From assembly GCA_038222225.1 (NCBI GenBank), contig JBBRHV010000003.1, forward strand, positions 10,331-74,330: DNA of 64,000 bases, given 5' to 3'. The notes under the pieces were generated by a model. It saw nothing but the letters and a program-made list of their open reading frames with translations. It was not told the origin of the DNA and searched no databases. Shown here one piece after another: positions 28,012 through 37,986 of the stretch. The position numbers and the translations under genes were made by a program. The DNA comes from Candidatus Omnitrophota bacterium. GTDB lineage: Bacteria > Omnitrophota > Gorgyraeia > Zapsychrales > JANLHA01. The stretch's first letter is position 1. Each line of letters begins with the position of its first letter.

Positions 28012-29046
28012 CTATTTATATATACCCGCCAAACCTTTATCCAACAATTCCTGATTCACATAAACCCCCTCCTCCGCAATGCGGGCGAGGTCATCCGTTC
28101 CCTCCAGCACAAACAGATCAGTCAGATAACGGCCGTACTTTTCCGGGTCCTTATGGGTCTTAACCACCACGCGCTCAACGCCTTTGAGGCGGCCGGTCAA
28201 ATACTCTTTGGCCTTAACCCCGGCTAAAGTGGAAAGCTCCGGGGCATCGATCGCCCGCAGGCGCAGGCGCTGGGTTGTTAACATACCGTAGCCCATATCA
28301 ATGCGCGCCACCAAAGTATCGCCGTCCACCACTCGATCGATCCAGGCGCCGTAAGTATACAGCACCTCACTGGGACCTTTATAGGTTTCCAGCCGGTAAC
28401 CTGCCCCCTCTTTGATCGAGCACACAAGTTTCGAATTGATAAACTTGATATATCCCGCCTCGGCACTGTCAATGGCCACATGAAAACCCAGATCAAGCCT
28501 TGGTGAAAACGGCACGCCGTTTAAATCCGTGCCTTTGCGGATCGCATATAGATAGGGAATGCCGCGCGCACAGGTCAGCTGTCCGCCTTTGAGCTCAACG
28601 CGATGAAGCGCTTCGACGTTTTTGTCGCGAACCAATTCGGTCACCTGCAGGCTCGAAACTCCCTCTTTAATCATCCGGCGCTCAAGCTTGAGCCGTTCTT
28701 TACTATCGGCCACACTGATCAGATGGCGGTAATGCGTCCAGGTCAAGGGCGTGTTGCCCGGACACTGCGGATACATGCGGTAGAACTGAACCATCTTCTG
28801 AAGGACGCGCTCATTCAATTTAAGCTCCTCCCCCAATTTTTGGTACAGCGAAACCCTGTAAGCGGAGCGGTAATCCTTGTCGAGAAAAGATTCGGCGATC
28901 GAGCAGCCGATCTTCCAGTAGGTTTGAACACGGGCGAGGTTTAAAAGATGCTGAGCTTCTTTGAGCCCGGTATCCATGTCCCGGCGGATGGATGTCAGAA
29001 GTTTGGTGAAACGTTTTTCAACCACAACGTTGGCGGGAACGGTCAT
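28012..29046 (-). CDS. DUF1016_N (YhcG N-terminal) domain fused to a staphylococcal-nuclease-like (SNase/thermonuclease) domain; putative nuclease.
   Basis: LLNLARVQTYWKIGCSIAE (DUF1016_N-like) and VVDGDTLVARIDMG...LRLRAIDAPE (SNase DGDT...R..IDAPE). Confidence 0.6.
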   Translation of the reverse strand: MTVPANVVVEKRFTKLLTSIRRDMDTGLKEAQHLLNLARVQTYWKIGCSIAESFLDKDYRSAYRVSLYQKLGEELKLNERVLQKMVQFYRMYPQCPGNTPLTWTHYRHLISVADSKERLKLERRMIKEGVSSLQVTELVRDKNVEALHRVELKGGQLTCARGIPYLYAIRKGTDLNGVPFSPRLDLGFHVAIDSAEAGYIKFINSKLVCSIKEGAGYRLETYKGPSEVLYTYGAWIDRVVDGDTLVARIDMGYGMLTTQRLRLRAIDAPELSTLAGVKAKEYLTGRLKGVERVVVKTHKDPEKYGRYLTDLFVLEGTDDLARIAEEGVYVNQELLDKGLAGIYK

Positions 29047-29057
29047 GGAAATATTAT

Positions 29058-29140
29058 AGAGCGTAGAGGGTAGAGCGTAAAGCGTAGAGGGAAAAAAAGA
29101 CACTAAGACACTAAGACACTCAGGCACTAAGACACTGAAA
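29058..29140. repeat. Two short tandem repeat blocks: (AGCGTAGAGGG)-like x3 and (GACACTAA) x about 5.
   Basis: Read directly from the sequence upstream of the nuclease gene start. Confidence 0.7.
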
Positions 29141-29182
29141 AACGGAAAAACAAAAAACCGCCCTTTGGGGTGGCTTTTTATT

Positions 29183-29317: not shown

Positions 29318-29596
29318 CTAAATATTCTTCAGAAACCTTTTAATATCGTCGTGATTTCCCGCAAATATAAATTCCACTAAATCCCCTTGCCACCTAAACA
29401 AGATCCTAGCTTTTATGCCCTTGCGCACTTCCCAAAAGTCACCTCTTAAACGCTTTAAGCCAATTCCTTTATGAATACTTTGATCTTGGGACAGCATATC
29501 AATTAGCTGAATTGCAACTTCTTTTATTGCTGCCTTTTCCTTCTCGGAAAAGGATTTCATTGATCGCTTAAATGCCGGCTTAAATTCAAATTTCAT
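29318..29596 (-). CDS. RelE/ParE-family type II toxin.
   Basis: 92 aa; KGIGLKRLRGDFWEVRKGIKARILFRWQGDLVEFIFAGNHDD pattern; 4-bp overlap with the upstream antitoxin. Confidence 0.7.
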   Translation of the reverse strand: MKFEFKPAFKRSMKSFSEKEKAAIKEVAIQLIDMLSQDQSIHKGIGLKRLRGDFWEVRKGIKARILFRWQGDLVEFIFAGNHDDIKRFLKNI

Positions 29597-29856
29597 AAGT
29601 CTTTAAGATGTTCTTTGGCTACTTCTGCACTGGAAATGCTCTTGCCTTTTTCAGCGGCTAGCTTCTCGATCTTAGCCCATTCTTGTTCCGTGTATGGAGA
29701 TTCAGCCGTGACTTTGCAAGGAACCAAAATCACACCATCTTTTGTAATACCAAAACCCACCGCCGAACCTTCTTTTAAATTCAAAAGCTTTCGAATACGA
29801 TTGGGGATCGTGATCTGTCCTTTGGTGGTCATTTTTGCTACTTCTGTGATTGTCAT
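29593..29856 (-). CDS. AbrB/MazE/SpoVT-type antitoxin.
   Basis: MTTKGQITIPNRIRKLLNLKEGSAV swapped-hairpin motif; RBS AAAGGAG. Confidence 0.7.
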   Translation of the reverse strand: MTITEVAKMTTKGQITIPNRIRKLLNLKEGSAVGFGITKDGVILVPCKVTAESPYTEQEWAKIEKLAAEKGKSISSAEVAKEHLKDL

Positions 29857-30182
29857 TTGAAGGCTCCTTTCATTTTTCCTTACATCCTTACTTAAAGGAT
29901 ACCCTACAAGTAACCAACCGTCAACCCTTTTTAAATCCTGAAAGATCTCACAACACTCTTTCAAACATCCTCTCTAATCACAATCAGAAAGCTGCTTAAC
30001 GCAGAAATTTCATCAATATCAACATGCCACTCATTTGTGTGGATGTCAAGATTCTTCTGTTTCCTTTTATTTTCACCACCAAAACCATCACCAAAATCTC
30101 TAAAAAACATAACGCACCTTGATTAACATCGATATGGCTTGAAAAAATGAAGAAAGGGAAGGCAAAAGCCTTCCCTTTTATC

Positions 30183-30213
30183 TGGTAGCCCCAACTAGAT
30201 TTGAACTAACAAC
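30183..30213 (-). repeat. att-like remnant: copy of the 3' about 30 nt of tRNA-Glu (27/31 identical to the reverse complement of 37323-37353).
   Basis: tggtagccccaactagatttgaactaacaac versus tggtagccccaaccggatttgaaccggtgtt. Confidence 0.65.
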
Positions 30214-31856: not shown

Positions 31857-32083
31857 TGTGTCAATTTTTGTAGAAACCCCTGATCAATAAATCATTAATA
31901 AATCGTGACCATGTTTTGCTGAAGTTTTCTGCAAGTATAAATTCCACCAAGCCGTCAAAGTTTTTTTCTTTTAGATGCCATAAAATTATTCTGTTTCATA
32001 AAAAATTTTGAATGCCAATTTAAAATTTTTATACAAATAATAGCCTTTTGGAAATGCATAAGTCTATGGTATTCTTACAGTAT

Positions 32084-32263
32084 GAAAGAAACATCCCTCT
32101 TTGAATCAAATCCTTATTTAAAAAATCAGGCTGTACGAAACCGGATGTTTTTAACTGCCGTGAATACCTCGACTGCTATTGAAGGTGTTCATGTCGATAT
32201 CTCATCTCCAAAAAAGCGTTCACGCCAAAACACATCCATATCTAGGAAGATGCTGAAGTAGCC
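32084..32263 (+). pseudogene. Fic-family N-terminal fragment (inhibitory-helix region TSTAIEGVHVDIS), 59 aa.
   Basis: Hand translation MKETSLFESNPYLKNQAVRNRMFLTAVNTSTAIEGVHVDISSPKK... parallels the N-terminus of the intact Fic at 35362..36378. Confidence 0.55.
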
Positions 32264-32490
32264 TTCTTGATTGTCCTTCTGATAACACTCAAAAACATCC
32301 TCTGCATGGGAACATAGTCTCTTCTAAGACCAGATTGTACCGCTGCGATATATTCGGCCTTTTTTCTGCCTTGAATACCGCCAAAATCCAAGGCCGGCAG
32401 CCCTGCCTGAAGAGCCATGATGATAGAAAGAAGTCGCGCAATTCGGCCGTTACCTTCCCGAAACGGATGGATCAGAGACCAATAAAAATA
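32236..32490 (-). pseudogene. Fic-family C-terminal fragment starting at the catalytic motif (YFYWSLIHPFREGNGRIARLL...). No start codon; in frame directly after the HEPN stop codon.
   Basis: HPFxEGNGR Fic motif read by hand. Convergent with the N-terminal fragment on the opposite strand. Confidence 0.7.
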
Positions 32491-32895
32491 TCAAGATAGC
32501 TTGTTCTTCACAAATTCAAAAAACCGCTCACAATCTTTAAACATCTTCTCTGCCTCGTTTTTGCAAACAAGGCGCTCCTCATACTCAGCCATATTTTTCA
32601 TCCGCAAAATCCTCACGATACGGTTGGCGTTTGTCGTGAACTCTTCGGTGTTTTTGATCATTTTAAACAGGACGACCGCCTGATTATGGTCTTCGCCGGC
32701 GCTTCTTTTCCCCAAAAAATAAACGCACATGGCGTCACAGGCGGATATCGTGCAGTGTATCGCATTAATAGCAACAGCATTCCACTGTTGTCCTTGCAAG
32801 GCTTTCTGCGATGCATTAAAACACTCTTGTGCTTTCTGCATAAAATTCGTATACGCTGCGCGCTGAACATCCCGTGTTTTCGGCTTTGCTATCAT
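32491..32895 (-). CDS. HEPN-domain protein (toxin partner of MNT).
   Basis: R-x4-6-H motif (KRSAGEDH); genetic pairing with the MNT gene. Confidence 0.7.
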   Translation of the reverse strand: MIAKPKTRDVQRAAYTNFMQKAQECFNASQKALQGQQWNAVAINAIHCTISACDAMCVYFLGKRSAGEDHNQAVVLFKMIKNTEEFTTNANRIVRILRMKNMAEYEERLVCKNEAEKMFKDCERFFEFVKNKLS

Positions 32896-32907
32896 AACAT
32901 CATCCTC

Positions 32908-33504
32908 CTAGGGGAATAATTGTATTCCTTTTTCGATTTCCTCCAAAAGCTTCAGATCCTTCTTCTGCTGAAACTGTTTTTCCGTCAGAACATACGCAGC
33001 CAATCTGTTGCCAAATTTTTCTAGGCATGTAATAGACAGTCCCTCAAGCGATTCCTCCAGAGACTTTAAACTTTCCTTATTTTGGGTCAAAACAAAAAGA
33101 TCAATATCGCTGTCTGTTTTTTCATCATGACTGGAAACAGATCCGAACAAAACGACTTTAATCAGGCTTTTCTTGGGTAGTCTGCTTAAAATGGTCGTTT
33201 TTAAGGCCACAATCGGCTGTGGCTGCGTGTCAACGATCCCTTTGACAGTATTCAACACATCATAAGCGTAACTCTGAGGATTGACTTTCCAGACATGGGC
33301 CCGCCCTACTCTTTCATAGGAAACAAAATGCCACTGCTCCAGATAGCGCATAACCCGGTTAACCGTCATGTGCGAAATTCCCACCAGAGACGAAATCTCT
33401 CTCTCACTCATGGCGGACTCATGGTTAATCAAAAACCGGACAACCTTGAGTTTCGCCTCAGTATCGATCAATTGAAAAAACGAATCATGAAACTTCATAC
33501 GCAT
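32908..33504 (-). CDS. Minimal nucleotidyltransferase (MNT) with N-terminal winged HTH (antitoxin partner of HEPN).
   Basis: LFGSVSSHDEKTDSDIDLFVL (GS...DxD) motif; wHTH at the N-terminus. Confidence 0.75.
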   Translation of the reverse strand: MRMKFHDSFFQLIDTEAKLKVVRFLINHESAMSEREISSLVGISHMTVNRVMRYLEQWHFVSYERVGRAHVWKVNPQSYAYDVLNTVKGIVDTQPQPIVALKTTILSRLPKKSLIKVVLFGSVSSHDEKTDSDIDLFVLTQNKESLKSLEESLEGLSITCLEKFGNRLAAYVLTEKQFQQKKDLKLLEEIEKGIQLFP

Positions 33505-33506
33505 TC

Positions 33507-33552
33507 CTTTGTAACTTTCATGTTACAAATGTAACATAAATGTTACATAAAA
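33507..33552. promoter_or_regulatory. Operator-like 18-bp perfect palindrome ATGTTACAAATGTAACAT plus an extra TGTTACAT half-site, immediately upstream of the MNT start.
   Basis: Palindrome read directly; the downstream gene encodes a wHTH protein. The TGTAACAT half-site also occurs at about 36645. Confidence 0.5.
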
Positions 33553-33615
33553 TCAATGATTTTATATCGAAATATCAACGGCACCATACGACGCAAAAAC
33601 TCTTTAAACTTCATC

Positions 33616-33963
33616 TTCATTTACTAGAGAGTGGTTGCCCAATTATGGCTAAATCCTAGTAAATGGCTTTTTGGCCATTTTCCCAAAATGCCGATTGCGA
33701 CTATTTTGATTTATTGTCATTTACTAGGGGCCATTTACTAAGTGCCACTTCTGATAGAAATGGCTAGTATCAGACCCAATTTGGCTGTCGCGAGTACTAT
33801 CAATTTTTCCAAATGTAAGCATCCAGCGCCGAAACTACAAAACACCATCCCACTTGCGCCCTAACCCTTTGACACGTCAAGACATGAACGATCCCTGACT
33901 GCGTTTGGCAATCAGGGATCTTTGTGATTCTGAGAGTCGTTTCCGACACTGTTATACTGGTAG
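33616..33963 (+). repeat. Repeat R2 (CATTTACTAG sites x4 in direct/inverted orientation, terminator hairpin, ends ...TTATACTGGTAG); lacks the central sRNA-like segment.
   Basis: Alignable to R3 36711..37142 and R1 558..873. Confidence 0.75.
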
Positions 33964-33999
33964 TGTACGCTGTCCGAAGACACACATGACTCTCACCAT

Positions 34000-35263
34000 T
34001 GATCTTCCCCACTTTAGTGGACAGTTTGTTTAGTTAGGACGGCTCGATTTTCAAACTCAAAAGGACTTAAATAATTGAGCGTTGAATGACTCCGTCTACG
34101 ATTATAATACATCTCTACATATTCAAAGATTTTTCTTCTTGCTTCTTCCCTAGTTCGAAATCGGTACTTGTGAACAAGCTCGACTTTTAACGTGTGGAAG
34201 AAGCTCTCAGCGACGGCATTATCCCAGCAGTCACCTTTTCGGCTCATACTGCCGATAAGCTTATGTTCAGCCAATATCGCCTTGAAATCATTCCCTGCGT
34301 ACTGACTGCCGCGATCTGAGTGACAGATCAATCCTTTATCCGGATTCCGCCTTAGGATCGCCTGTTGCATAGCCCTGGTGGTTAGTGTCGCGGCAATGGT
34401 TTTATCCATGGCCAAACCAACAATCCCCCGCGAAAAAAGATCCAGCACCATCGCCACATATAACCACCCTTGAGAAGTCCAAATATACGTTATATCGAAT
34501 ACCCAGACGGCATTGGGCTTCTCGACCACAAAGTTCCGATTCAAAACATTCGGCCATACCGGATAATCATGCTTCGAGTTCGTCGTTAACCGAAACTTAC
34601 GCTTCTGGACAGCGACGATTCTGGCTTCTCGCATGACCTTCGCCACACGGTTCTCCGAACAACGGATATGTTTGACGTTGTTCAACTGGTCCCAGATTCG
34701 TGGACTGCCGTAATTCTCTTTGTTCTCCACAAACACACATTTTATCTCAATGAGCAATGCTTCATTCTTGATGCGGCCCTGGCTCTTGGGCCGATTTTTG
34801 TATGCGTAATACCCGCTCCTCGACACTTCCAAGGCCCGGCACATCTTCCCGAGCGGAAAGACCAAACGGTTATCGTCTATGAATCCGAACCGTTCTCGGT
34901 CGATTTTGAAAATATGCCGACTGCTTTTTTTAGGATGTCACGCTCCATTTCAACATCACGTAACTGACGCCGTAACGCCGCCAACTCTGTCAAATGACCC
35001 TTGCCGGGAAAAGCCTTCTCTCCCTCATCGCCAAACTGCTTCTTCCAGAGATACAGCCGCCCCGGGTCGATTCCAAGGCTCCTGGCCACCTCTGCGGCCT
35101 TGTGCCCGCCCTCTGTGACCATCTTGACCGCTGACATCTTGAACTCCCGGTCAAACCGCTTCTTCTTCCCGTTTTCTCCTGCCATTGGACACCTCCCGTT
35201 TTTGAGCCGGCTATCATATTAAAACCAACTCTTCGTTGTGTCCACTTTTTCGGGGGAAGATCA
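34000..35263 (-). mobile_element. IS3-family insertion sequence (orfA 34877..35185, orfB 34014..about 34930, A7 -1 frameshift site near 34920; terminal IRs TGATCTTCCCC...).
   Basis: OrfA HTH protein; OrfB rve/DDE integrase core; slippery CTAAAAAAAGC; about 25-bp imperfect terminal inverted repeats at 34000 and 35263. Confidence 0.85.
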
Positions 35264-35361
35264 CTTTATCAACTTGAATAATGCATTCAAGTCGTTACAA
35301 CCGGATTTTTATCCATTCAAATCTTGAAATTTCGCACTCTTTCTTTGGATTTTCATACCAT

Positions 35362-36378
35362 TTATTGCTTTTCCACATATTCAGCCATATCCTGCACCCG
35401 AACATGCCAAGTCTTCCCTCTTTTGACACCCTTTAATTTTCCCCGATTAATTAAATTGCGAAGATAATCTGAAGAGTAATTATAGATTCTTGCCAAATCA
35501 CTCAGCGGCAACTCAGCCTCTTTATTAGTGTGACGAATATCTACTTCCTTAAGGCGTCCTACGGCATCATCCAACCGTCCTATAACAATTTCTTTTATCT
35601 TATCAAAATCCTCCAGACGAATGCATTCATCTACATCATTAACATCAAACTTTTTCCCTTGCTCTATTTTGCGATGAATTAATTCAAAAACATCATCTGC
35701 CTTCTCTAGGGCATCATAATAATACTCACGATCCTTTTTAGAAATACCTTTGATCGCTATATTCATCAACCCACATCCAATGAGAATATACGATAATAAA
35801 ATCCTCCCAGTGCGCCCATTCCCATCAGAAAAAGGATGGATCGATTCAAACCAAACATGTGCTATCGCCGTTAGTTCAATATGATTATATTTCTCTTTTT
35901 TTAGATGATAATTAATCCATTTAACCAATAATTCCGTCGCTGGACGCACATAAAATTCACTAATAGGCGTAAACGTAGATTCTGTAACCTCTGCCCTGCC
36001 CTTACGAAATCCCCCTAAATCTCCGATATAAAATCCCATTTCCTTTTCATAACGCATCAAAAGAGTGTGGATCTGTTTAACATCAGACATACGCACTGAA
36101 AATTCTTCTTCCTTGTGTTGATTTGCCGCATATTCATACATCGCAGATGCTGCTTCAAAATAACCTAGAATAGATGCCGCCTTATGCTTATCCGTTCTTT
36201 TATTATTTTCAAGAATATCAATCAAATCTTTACGATTAGCAAATACTCCTTCAATCGCAATGGAGTTGCGAATCTCATCCTTAAACAAAGAATACCATTC
36301 GGCATTAGAAACGCTGATCAAATGATCCTTTGTTTCTTTTAACTTGTTGAACTCTTTTAAAATAGCTGATAATTTCAT
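35362..36378 (-). CDS. fic: Fic-family protein (intact; HPFSDGNGRTGR motif) with a C-terminal HTH-like region.
   Basis: Fic motif, N-terminal SIAIEGV inhibitory-helix-like motif, 338 aa. Confidence 0.85.
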   Translation of the reverse strand: MKLSAILKEFNKLKETKDHLISVSNAEWYSLFKDEIRNSIAIEGVFANRKDLIDILENNKRTDKHKAASILGYFEAASAMYEYAANQHKEEEFSVRMSDVKQIHTLLMRYEKEMGFYIGDLGGFRKGRAEVTESTFTPISEFYVRPATELLVKWINYHLKKEKYNHIELTAIAHVWFESIHPFSDGNGRTGRILLSYILIGCGLMNIAIKGISKKDREYYYDALEKADDVFELIHRKIEQGKKFDVNDVDECIRLEDFDKIKEIVIGRLDDAVGRLKEVDIRHTNKEAELPLSDLARIYNYSSDYLRNLINRGKLKGVKRGKTWHVRVQDMAEYVEKQ

Positions 36379-36602: not shown

Positions 36603-36710
36603 CAAATGTCCGTCTTTTTCTCAGACCCACTAGCTTTCCAGATATGGATATGTAACATAAAAATTGTACAAAACAGCACTTTCATTTTACAAAACACAAA
36701 AACCCCACTA

Positions 36711-37142
36711 TTCATTTACTAGAGAATTTTCGCCATATTCAGGCACAATCCTAGTAAATGAAATTCTGGCTATTCCACCCCAATAGGCATTTTCAAACAT
36801 TTTGATAAATAAGCATTTACTAGGAGCCATTTACTAAAGGCCGATTTTGATAGAAATGGCTAGTATCAGACCCAATTTGGCTGCCGCGAGTACTATCAAT
36901 TTTTCCAAACGTGATCATCCTGCGCCGAAACTACAAAACATCATCCCCATTACGCCCTAACCATTTGCAACGTCAACACAGGCATTACCCCCTTCGGGGG
37001 TTGATGCTGCGCAATCATCTAAACTCTGCAAAAAAACACCAGAGTTTAGATACGCAAACCGCATCAAAAATCCCTGACCGCGTTTGGCAATCAGGGATCT
37101 TTTTGATTCTAAGAGTCGTTTCCGACACTATTATACTGGTAG
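36711..37142 (+). repeat. Repeat R3 (full-length: CATTTACTAG site cluster + sRNA-like structured segment about 36930-37095 + terminator), directly abutting a tRNA-Glu 3'-end copy at 37137.
   Basis: See R1/R2; ends with ...ttatactggtagccccaa. Confidence 0.75.
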
Positions 37143-37322: not shown

Positions 37323-37399
37323 TGGTAGCCCCAACCGGATTTGAACCGGTGTTTGATGGCTGAGAACCATCCGTCCTGACCAGGCTAGACGATGGGGCC
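37323..37399 (-). tRNA. tRNA-Glu (anticodon CUC), CCA encoded.
   Basis: Hand-folded cloverleaf: acceptor GGCCCCA/TGGGGCT, anticodon arm GATGG-TTCTCAG-CCATC, T-arm ACCGG-TTCAAAT-CCGGT, D-region TCGTCTAG...AGGAC as in bacterial tRNA-Glu. Confidence 0.85.
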
Positions 37400-37599: not shown

Positions 37600-37703
37600 G
37601 CTGAGCAATGAGGCTTACCTCAAAATCTTTTAGCCAAAGCCTCATTCCCGGCCAACTTGATTGGCCGGCACCATCCGTCCTGACCAGGCTAGACGATGGG
37701 GCC
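37600..37703 (-). repeat. Partial copy of the tRNA-Glu 5' half (positions 1 to about 33, 37668..37703), then a 64-nt hairpin-rich insertion, then the anticodon/3'-stem sequence CTCAGCCATCC. Not a complete tRNA.
   Basis: ccatccgtcctgaccaggctagacgatggggcc identical to 37367-37399; downstream sequence lacks a proper T-arm and acceptor 3' strand. Confidence 0.6.
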
Positions 37704-37986
37704 AAAATTTTTAAACCCATAAAATTGAAATACTTGGAAATACATAGAAAGACGGGGAAATAAAAAAGCTTCCCCCCCCACCGTCCATGGCGCATCCTTC
37801 AATTTCAAGCGCATATCACTCGTATTTCAATCCACTTCTATCATTTTCCACTAGGGATAAATCTTACCACATTTCCCTTATTGGTCAATAAAAATATCCC
37901 GCTGCATTTTTAAGGAAAAGCACCTCCCATAAGACTATTTTTATGATATATTCTTTATAATTAGGAAAATTATCGAGGACCTCAGC

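Follow-up and report, generated by a model that had tools for sequence, protein, structure and literature searches.

In this work, we analyse a locus in a 64,000-nucleotide (nt) stretch of a Candidatus Omnitrophota genome (assembly GCA_038222225.1, contig JBBRHV010000003.1, positions 10,331 to 74,330 of the forward strand), referred to below as the window, in which an intact small gene on the plus strand converges with what is left of a fic gene on the minus strand, and the fic sequence in turn directly follows the end of a HEPN toxin gene. Taken as a whole, the locus quite likely consists of a complete MNT-HEPN module, the decayed tail of a fic gene, and the orphaned native partner gene of that fic, and we are highly confident of its anatomy and history. 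The product of the small gene is a plausible candidate for a Fic antitoxin of a convergently encoded type. The features on which the argument depends are as follows.

Positions 32082-32261, plus strand: small gene, 59 amino acids (aa) and stop codon, intact, matching the hidden Markov model (HMM) of its family.
Positions 32242-32475, minus strand: 3' remnant of a VbhT-like (class I type) fic gene, from LIHPFREGNGRIAR to the native stop, HMM positions 141-212 of 215.
Positions 32476-32490, minus strand: 15-nt junction TATTTTTATTGGTCT (YFYWS in translation), which separates the HEPN stop from the first codon of clearly Fic origin.
Positions 32491-32895, minus strand: HEPN toxin gene, complete, 134 aa, Pfam HEPN with an expectation value (E) of 4.6e-5, stop codon TGA at 32491-32493.
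Positions 32908-33504, minus strand: MNT antitoxin gene, complete, 198 aa, with the Pfam families Polbeta and NTP_transf_2 and helix-turn-helix (HTH) families.
Positions 33505-33554, minus strand: region upstream of MNT with nested TGTAACA/TGTTACA palindromes, where DNA homology to three related loci (L087, L088, and L090) begins.

The translation of the plus-strand open reading frame (ORF) begins MKETSLFESNPYLKNQAVRNRMFLTAVNTSTAIEGVHV and carries NPYL and the stretch NTSTAIEGV, which contains S30-T-A-I-E34-G35. Its homologues are not easily collected: a word-indexed homologue search using the 59-aa ORF alone found nothing, and exhaustive phmmer searching followed by a profile built from four sequences was required. 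With phmmer, the ORF gave 33 significant matches among 1.84 billion representative proteins, mostly of about 50-80 aa (best E 7.7e-7), and the profile search with small-protein sequences extended these to at least 804 clusters, typically of 63-68 aa, in which every named member is a "hypothetical protein" and no Pfam domain was found. Likewise, profile searches of the family against Pfam, NCBIfam, and PDB sequences gave no significant match. The ORF in the window covers positions 1-60 of the 64 positions of the family HMM (E 5.5e-22), and seven residues are invariant across 30 family members, namely N10, P11, L13, S30, T31, A32, and E34.

The conserved N-terminal 32 codons of the small gene lie outside the overlap with fic, and we restricted the count of codon-position differences to these codons. 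Among 78 distinct DNA sequences, differences fall at the first, second, and third codon positions in proportions of 29, 20, and 51%, and 48% of the differing codons are synonymous. The excess at third positions and the share of synonymous codons indicate that the small ORF is a translated gene. The family has at least 164 genome loci, is distributed over Thermodesulfobacteriota, Nitrospirota, anammox Planctomycetota, and Gammaproteobacteria, and is also present on enterobacterial plasmids. By its family match, the plus-strand ORF is an intact member of a conserved, stand-alone family of about 65 aa and not a piece of fic.

The partnership with fic was first spotted on contigs encoding homologues of the Fic tail, which had been found via Fic alone (L001, L002-L005, and L006). 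On L001 and L006, a called gene of 63-65 aa lies opposite fic, overlaps the fic 3' end, and encodes MPKKSLKETNPYLKDP followed further on by SVSSSTAVEGV; L002-L005 carry a variant of the convergent small ORF beside fic. The genome collection was then scanned using the small protein only, which gave the 164 loci mentioned above, of which 80 were kept for counts. An HMM of the Fic partner (215 positions), searched in all six frames of these 80 loci, detected a Fic-family sequence adjacent to the small gene and convergent with it in 63, and the 80 loci are distributed as follows.

Intact single fic ORF of about 215 aa beside the small gene: 36 loci.
5'-truncated fic beside the small gene: 20 loci, about 7 of them truncated merely through a contig end.
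fic split by a frameshift or stop beside the small gene: 7 loci.
No Fic-family sequence beside the small gene: 17 loci.

Overlapping 3' ends are a feature of every intact pair (36 of 36), the overlap ranging over 8-68 nt with a median of 38, compared with 20 nt in the window. The 500 nt ahead of Fic contain no conserved ORF (the largest cluster of ORFs there comprises 2 of the 36 loci), so that the small gene is the sole conserved partner. The divergence of Fic is correlated with that of the small protein (r = 0.66; none of 5000 permutations was as high) when the overlapping tail of Fic is left out and only the non-overlapping N-terminus of the small protein is used. The same arrangement is found on annotated plasmids: on Citrobacter freundii p6_A (Fic WP_024176618.1, small protein WP_016154571.1) and on a Marinomonas plasmid, the gene converging on one annotated as "Fic family protein" encodes a 52-aa "hypothetical protein" that contains SVASSTAIETG or AASSSAIETG. 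These plasmid copies are shorter than the others and were found only via the Fic gene; tblastn of the small-family consensus against plasmids gave nothing. On these counts, the convergent 3' overlap is the native layout of the fic/small-gene pair.

Some details of the sampled loci may be added. Intact pairs often have mobile or defence surroundings, as at L028 4832-6085, L071 4826-6106, L167 186-1502, and L006 1-2076 and 5178-6678; L024 and L053 also carry intact pairs. Some intact pairs lie directly 3' of a P4-type integrase (in gammaproteobacterial metagenome-assembled genomes and on the Citrobacter plasmid), and one is nested among type I restriction-modification genes. Even where contigs are long, many database homologues in the Fic clade measure only 75-140 aa, and several of these short ones are demonstrably frameshifted or 5'-truncated (for example, L002-L005 3579-4321). 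This hints at an unusually frequent inactivation of the toxin gene in pairs whose small gene is kept intact.

A possible role for the small protein is suggested by how Fic enzymes are controlled. Normally a helix carrying [S/T]xxxE[G/N] keeps them inactive through a pairing of its glutamate with the second Fic-motif arginine. Class I enzymes receive this inhibitory helix from a small antitoxin (VbhA, EcFicA/YhfG), the gene for which precedes theirs in an operon (PMC5033356). The full-length partner Fic proteins of our pairs have a complete HPFREGNGRxxR motif, and no conserved intrinsic [ST]xxxE[GN] motif was found in 35 of them. Their best relative of solved structure is VbhT (E 6.6e-16), followed by other single-domain Fic proteins, and they score below every NCBIfam cut-off. 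The invariant core of the small protein is S-T-A-[VI]-E-(G). As expected of a FicA protein, the 59-aa ORF thus encodes a small separate protein with [S/T]xxxE[G/N], and its family is linked to Fic proteins that have no inhibitory motif of their own (63 of the 80 loci; 35 full-length partners). From the missing motif in the partner Fics and the invariant S-x-x-x-E of the small protein, we infer a FicA-like inhibitor acting in trans. On balance, the small protein would be a class I, FicA-like antitoxin of its Fic, encoded convergently. In this mechanism, the invariant glutamate (E34 in the window) would be inserted at the ATP site, facing the second arginine of HPFx[D/E]GNGRxxR, and the copy in the window would be an orphan antitoxin that outlasted the destruction of its toxin gene.

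Several observations weigh against this assignment. FicA lies immediately upstream of ficT in one operon, whereas all 36 intact pairs are convergent. Comparison by hhalign with VbhA and YhfG, whose sequences were verified against PDB entries 3shg_B and 5jff_B, gave no significant similarity (E 0.37 and 0.77, over 1-7 columns, covering the motif only). In one subclade of the small family, E-T-G replaces E-[G/N]. The AlphaFold2 monomer of the small ORF has a predicted local distance difference test (pLDDT) score of 62 and a single helix (residues 16-29), and a Foldseek search with this low-confidence model returned nothing meaningful. Finally, 17 of the 80 loci have the small gene without any Fic sequence and many others have it beside a decayed Fic, and the small protein could have a function of its own.

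The foremost alternative is that the small protein is a genuine Fic partner of another kind: a regulator, a factor for target specificity or activation, or a gene kept mainly because its convergent transcript interferes with fic in an antisense manner. The lack of detectable similarity to VbhA or YhfG beyond the motif and the non-canonical gene order are in keeping with this, as are the persistence of the small gene in 44 of the 80 loci without an intact Fic and the 3' overlap of 8-68 nt, which would permit antisense effects. We nevertheless consider it unlikely, for the strongest conservation in the small protein is in S-x-x-x-E(G), which is the signature of Fic inhibitory helices and which the partner Fics do not have themselves; and the survival of antitoxins after the loss of their toxins is a familiar pattern. 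If the antitoxin reading is extended to the entire family, a widespread and undescribed family of Fic antitoxins may exist that is encoded tail to tail with the toxin, combines inhibition by the protein possibly with control by convergent transcription or antisense RNA, and often outlives the toxin; we propose this tentatively, as a possibility with slightly less than even chances. No description of a convergently encoded Fic antitoxin was found in the literature searched, which is not proof of absence.

We now turn to the fic sequence itself. The reading frame of the HEPN stop codon TGA (32491-32493) stays open for another 82 codons, from YFYWSLIHPFREGNGRIARLL to KKATSASS, and ends at a TAG at 32242-32244. 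The junction reads TGA / TATTTTTATTGGTCT / CTG ATC CAT CCG TTT (L I H P F), and the Fic-family consensus at the place where the window has the junction is VHTELV-LIHPF. The remnant carries the catalytic motif HPFREGNGRIAR and matches the subfamily HMM with E 4e-33. It also matches Pfam Fic (PF02661; E 1.9e-5, 25.9 bits against a cut-off of 24) over profile positions 73-91 of 93, and it aligns to positions 121-181 of 186 in TIGR02613 and 132-194 of 200 in the model for Escherichia coli Fic (NF007672). By its catalytic motif and Pfam score, the remnant is a member of the Fic/DOC family. The start codon and N-terminal helices of a functional full-length Fic are missing; the first in-frame ATG falls after the motif and yields only a product beginning MALQAGL. 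Positions 1-140 of the Fic HMM have no match in any frame of the 64 kb, even with the HMMER filters off.

What is left of the gene is well preserved. Identity of the remnant to its best homologues reaches 75%, and its score is 114 bits, where the same region of intact genes scores 96-130 bits. This preservation and the intact catalytic motif indicate that the truncation is recent. We take the Fic tail to be a recent pseudogene, and the frame that it shares with HEPN to be without functional meaning. The remnant ORF and the small gene converge and overlap by 20 nt (32242-32261).

Two other loci, L031 (4151-4381) and L070 (720-989), carry independent remnants that, like that of the window (32242-32490), are cut at HMM positions 138-141, before HPFREGNGR; the DNA upstream differs among the three. 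A truncation hot spot at these positions was considered and rejected: other cuts are scattered over positions 56-191, and the upstream sequences differ. The near-identical cut points may be a coincidence.

An abrupt junction in a repeat-rich locus, with three copies of a repeat, an IS3 element, and partial tRNA copies nearby, calls for consideration of an assembly chimera, in which the HEPN and fic pieces would not be adjacent in the genome. This is very unlikely: the junction (32476-32493) is outside every detected repeat, and about 13 genuine 5'-truncated fic remnants beside an intact small gene are found in independent assemblies, where those of L031 and L070 are cut at almost the same codon as in the window.

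We propose that one deletion, or one illegitimate recombination, took place between the 3' end of HEPN and about codon 140 of fic. This event would have removed the fic promoter and codons 1 to about 140, with an endpoint within 15 nt of the HEPN stop. Because HEPN and the remnant are on the same strand, a simple deletion suffices. Since the 5' part of fic is absent from the entire 64 kb, it was lost and not inverted or displaced. The convergent overlap would have been inherited from the ancestral pair, leaving the small gene as an orphan partner. A weak point of this history is that the junction may have formed either by the arrival of MNT-HEPN or by the loss of intervening DNA.

The first-pass annotation of this locus had explained it differently, as a single fic gene cut by an inversion or recombination, the N-terminal piece on the plus strand facing the C-terminal piece on the minus strand. 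Part of this description stands. The plus-strand ORF with TSTAIEGV exists, at 32082-32261 instead of 32084-32263; the two pieces do converge, with an overlap of 20 nt instead of about 28; and a breakpoint inside fic does abut the 3' end of MNT-HEPN. An inversion is not implied by it, however: the same overlapping convergent layout exists beside full-length fic in 36 genomes and on annotated plasmids, so that the layout of the window can be inherited and needs no inversion. Nor is the plus-strand ORF a Fic N-terminus. Its STAIEG does resemble the motif of the N-terminal inhibitory helix in class II Fic proteins, its likeness to the N-terminus of the intact fic in the window is weak, confined to the motif, and non-significant (E 0.6-6), and 2 of 30 small-family members have faint matches to DUF4172 (E 0.07). 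The ORF itself has no match to Pfam Fic, Fic_N, or DUF4172, nor to the 215-position HMM of the Fic subfamily with the filters off; it belongs to the stand-alone family of about 65 aa; and the subfamily of the remnant starts with MKK.GRYD...FEPGS, unlike the ORF. We consider the inversion of a single fic highly improbable.

The MNT-HEPN module next to the remnant is complete. MNT consists of an N-terminal winged HTH and a nucleotidyltransferase domain, and HEPN begins 12 nt after it. The Pfam Polbeta/NTP_transf_2 and HEPN matches exceed their cut-offs, which places the pair among HEPN-MNT toxin-antitoxin modules; the match of MNT to NCBIfam MntA, at 25.7 bits, is below the cut-off of 60. Directly upstream of the MNT start, palindromes at 33510-33550 (minus strand; DNA fold z = -3.6) are part of the region 33505-33554, which is probably the promoter and operator of MNT-HEPN, the operator presumably being bound by the winged-HTH domain of MNT itself. 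A degenerate form of the palindrome motif also ends one copy of the repeat described below (36650-36673), with no MNT after it.

In a metagenome scan for HEPN (80 loci), MNT (about 198 aa) and HEPN (133-134 aa) occur together in 77, mostly both full length. Residues 1-133 or 1-134 of the HEPN query are matched in most of these 80 loci, so HEPN in the window ends at the usual C-terminus of its family. The small gene is absent from all 80 HEPN loci, and in none of them is this Fic family directly downstream of HEPN; conversely, MNT, HEPN, and the neighbouring TPR protein are all absent from the 80 small-gene loci. A conserved arrangement of MNT-HEPN with Fic was thus rejected. MNT-HEPN is a complete, self-contained module without a functional link to the Fic remnant.

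These results also bear on a functional in-frame arrangement, in which readthrough or suppression of the HEPN TGA would yield a HEPN-Fic fusion. The first-pass annotation was right that the HEPN ORF ends in TGA and that a Fic core follows in the same frame, for 82 open codons with the catalytic motif intact, but a shared frame is expected by chance in one case in three, HEPN stops where its family usually does, none of the 80 homologous HEPN loci has this Fic directly downstream, the tail without the N-terminal two-thirds (HMM positions 1-140) could not form the scaffold of an active site, and a recent truncation explains the preservation of the tail equally well. The fusion is only a formal possibility, which would join just the last third of the Fic fold to HEPN, and its chances are minimal.

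The closest relative, L087, is syntenic and contains, in order, a FIST gene, a tRNA-Glu (99% identical), MNT-HEPN (73% nt identity), about 1 kb of further sequence, and a 336-aa fic with 74% identity to the intact fic of the window. L087 and the window are homologous from roughly 50 nt ahead of MNT as far as the HEPN stop (to within 9 nt), and from there on they are unrelated. The 338-aa fic of the window has relatives beside MNT-HEPN at a tRNA-Glu, and the order of the two modules after the tRNA is swapped between L087 and the window. Furthermore, L087 3840-3931, about 90 nt after the HEPN stop, is 77% homologous to window positions 35267-35357, which follow the stop of the intact fic; the same downstream element is thus joined to different modules in the two genomes.

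In the window, the locus is part of a 7.1-kb island that extends from a tRNA-Glu(CTC) gene to a 24-nt copy of its 3' end. Along the minus strand, the island contains a repeat copy (R3), an intact class II-like fic, an IS3 element, a second repeat copy (R2), MNT-HEPN, the fic remnant and small gene, and a TPR protein. The other features of the island and of the window are as follows.

Positions 37323-37399, minus strand: tRNA-Glu(CTC), anchor of the island.
Positions 35362-36378, minus strand: intact fic of a different subfamily, class II-like, 338 aa, with its own N-terminal SIAIEG and a C-terminal HTH_17.
Positions 33996-35262, minus strand: IS3-family insertion sequence, with orfA at 34877-35185 and orfB at 34014-34865 (NCBIfam transpos_IS3, E 7e-102).
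Positions 661-875, 33529-33965 (R2), and 36650-37142 (R3): three copies of repeat R, about 215-490 nt long, 81-96% identical.
Positions 335-399: 5' remnant of the class II fic, with the third R copy nearby (335-875 region).
Positions 29318-29964: RelE/ParE-like and AbrB/MazE-like pair.

The intact fic is about 30% identical to the remnant. The IS3 element sits between this gene and R2, has terminal inverted repeats TGATCTTCCCC and AGTGGACA, and its orfA and orfB are presumably joined by a frameshift. On the minus strand, each copy of repeat R lies just upstream of a module: the copy at 661-875 of the fic 5' remnant, R2 of MNT-HEPN, and R3 of the intact fic. The repeat opens with a hairpin, GATCCCTGATTGCCAAACGCAGTCAGGGATC, and contains several CATTTACTAG motifs; R2 is without a segment of about 65 nt that is present in R1 and R3. 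By nature, repeat R may be a small mobile element, or it may serve as a promoter region or as an arm of the island. Partial copies of the tRNA-Glu are found at 30183-30206 (24 nt of the 3' end, 92% identical) and at 37670-37706 (a perfect 37-nt match to the 5' half, about 300 nt upstream), and they look like traces of integrations at the tRNA. No integrase gene lies in the part of the window from 23 to 42 kb, and no attC-like sites were established in support of an integron-like cassette array. An 8-nt tandem repeat (AGACACTA and variants, about six copies) at 29090-29143 overlaps the 5' end of an ORF with DUF1016 and SNase domains (28012-29127). The intact fic, the fic 5' remnant, and the RelE/ParE-like and AbrB/MazE-like pair had all been recognized in the first-pass annotation, whose statement that TA and Fic genes are being reshuffled here is a fair one for a mosaic next to a tRNA-Glu with an IS3 element, three repeat copies, and partial tRNA copies.

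In the corrected annotation, the tRNA-Glu-linked TA island of the window holds an intact MNT-HEPN beside a fic pseudogene and its orphan partner gene, and what happened locally is gene decay of an ordinary kind. The wider interest is in the small protein, a member of a large family that is publicly labelled "hypothetical protein", has no Pfam or NCBIfam model, and, alone among the neighbours of a VbhT-like Fic clade, is conserved. If the small protein is indeed an antitoxin, it would provide the missing regulator for hundreds of class I Fic genes that seem solitary and uninhibited, and convergent, overlapping genes would be an unusual regulatory layout for a type II TA system. Cultured carriers of the pair are available in the form of Citrobacter, Salmonella, and Klebsiella plasmids.

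Among known systems, the class I FicTA modules (VbhT/VbhA of Bartonella schoenbuchensis and EcFicT/EcFicA, that is, Fic/YhfG, of E. coli) come closest: in both cases the complete HPFx[D/E]GNGRxxR is found in a single-domain Fic of about 200 aa without an intrinsic inhibitory motif, and this Fic is tightly linked to a protein of about 55-65 aa with an invariant S-x-x-x-E(G). They differ in that the class I antitoxin is encoded upstream in an operon, whereas here the small gene lies downstream of fic on the other strand and the two overlap at their 3' ends, and in that the small protein has an N-terminal NPYL box, is covered by no Pfam or NCBIfam model, and includes one E-T-G subclade. Class II Fic proteins, such as that encoded at 35362-36378 in the window, have a similar type of motif (SIAIEGV, compared with STAIEGV in the small ORF), but with the helix within the Fic polypeptide and not in a separate gene on the other strand. 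The short Fic proteins of mobile mystery protein B (TIGR02613) and E. coli Fic (NF007672) align with the remnant in their C-terminal thirds; however, the full-length partner Fics score 48-60 bits against cut-offs of 124 and 181 and are not members (for TIGR02613, with its cut-off of 124.4 bits, the remnant scores 29 bits and the full-length partners 48-52 bits). The MNT-HEPN module resembles HepT/MntA (type VII) in having MNT upstream and HEPN downstream, and differs from it in the additional N-terminal winged HTH of MNT and its sub-cut-off match to MntA. Finally, orphan antitoxins and toxin pseudogenes in decaying TA islands offer a close parallel to the locus as a whole, with an intact partner beside a 5'-truncated toxin, linkage to a tRNA, and the presence of insertion sequences and repeats; compared with these, the window is unusual only in the identity of the partner family.

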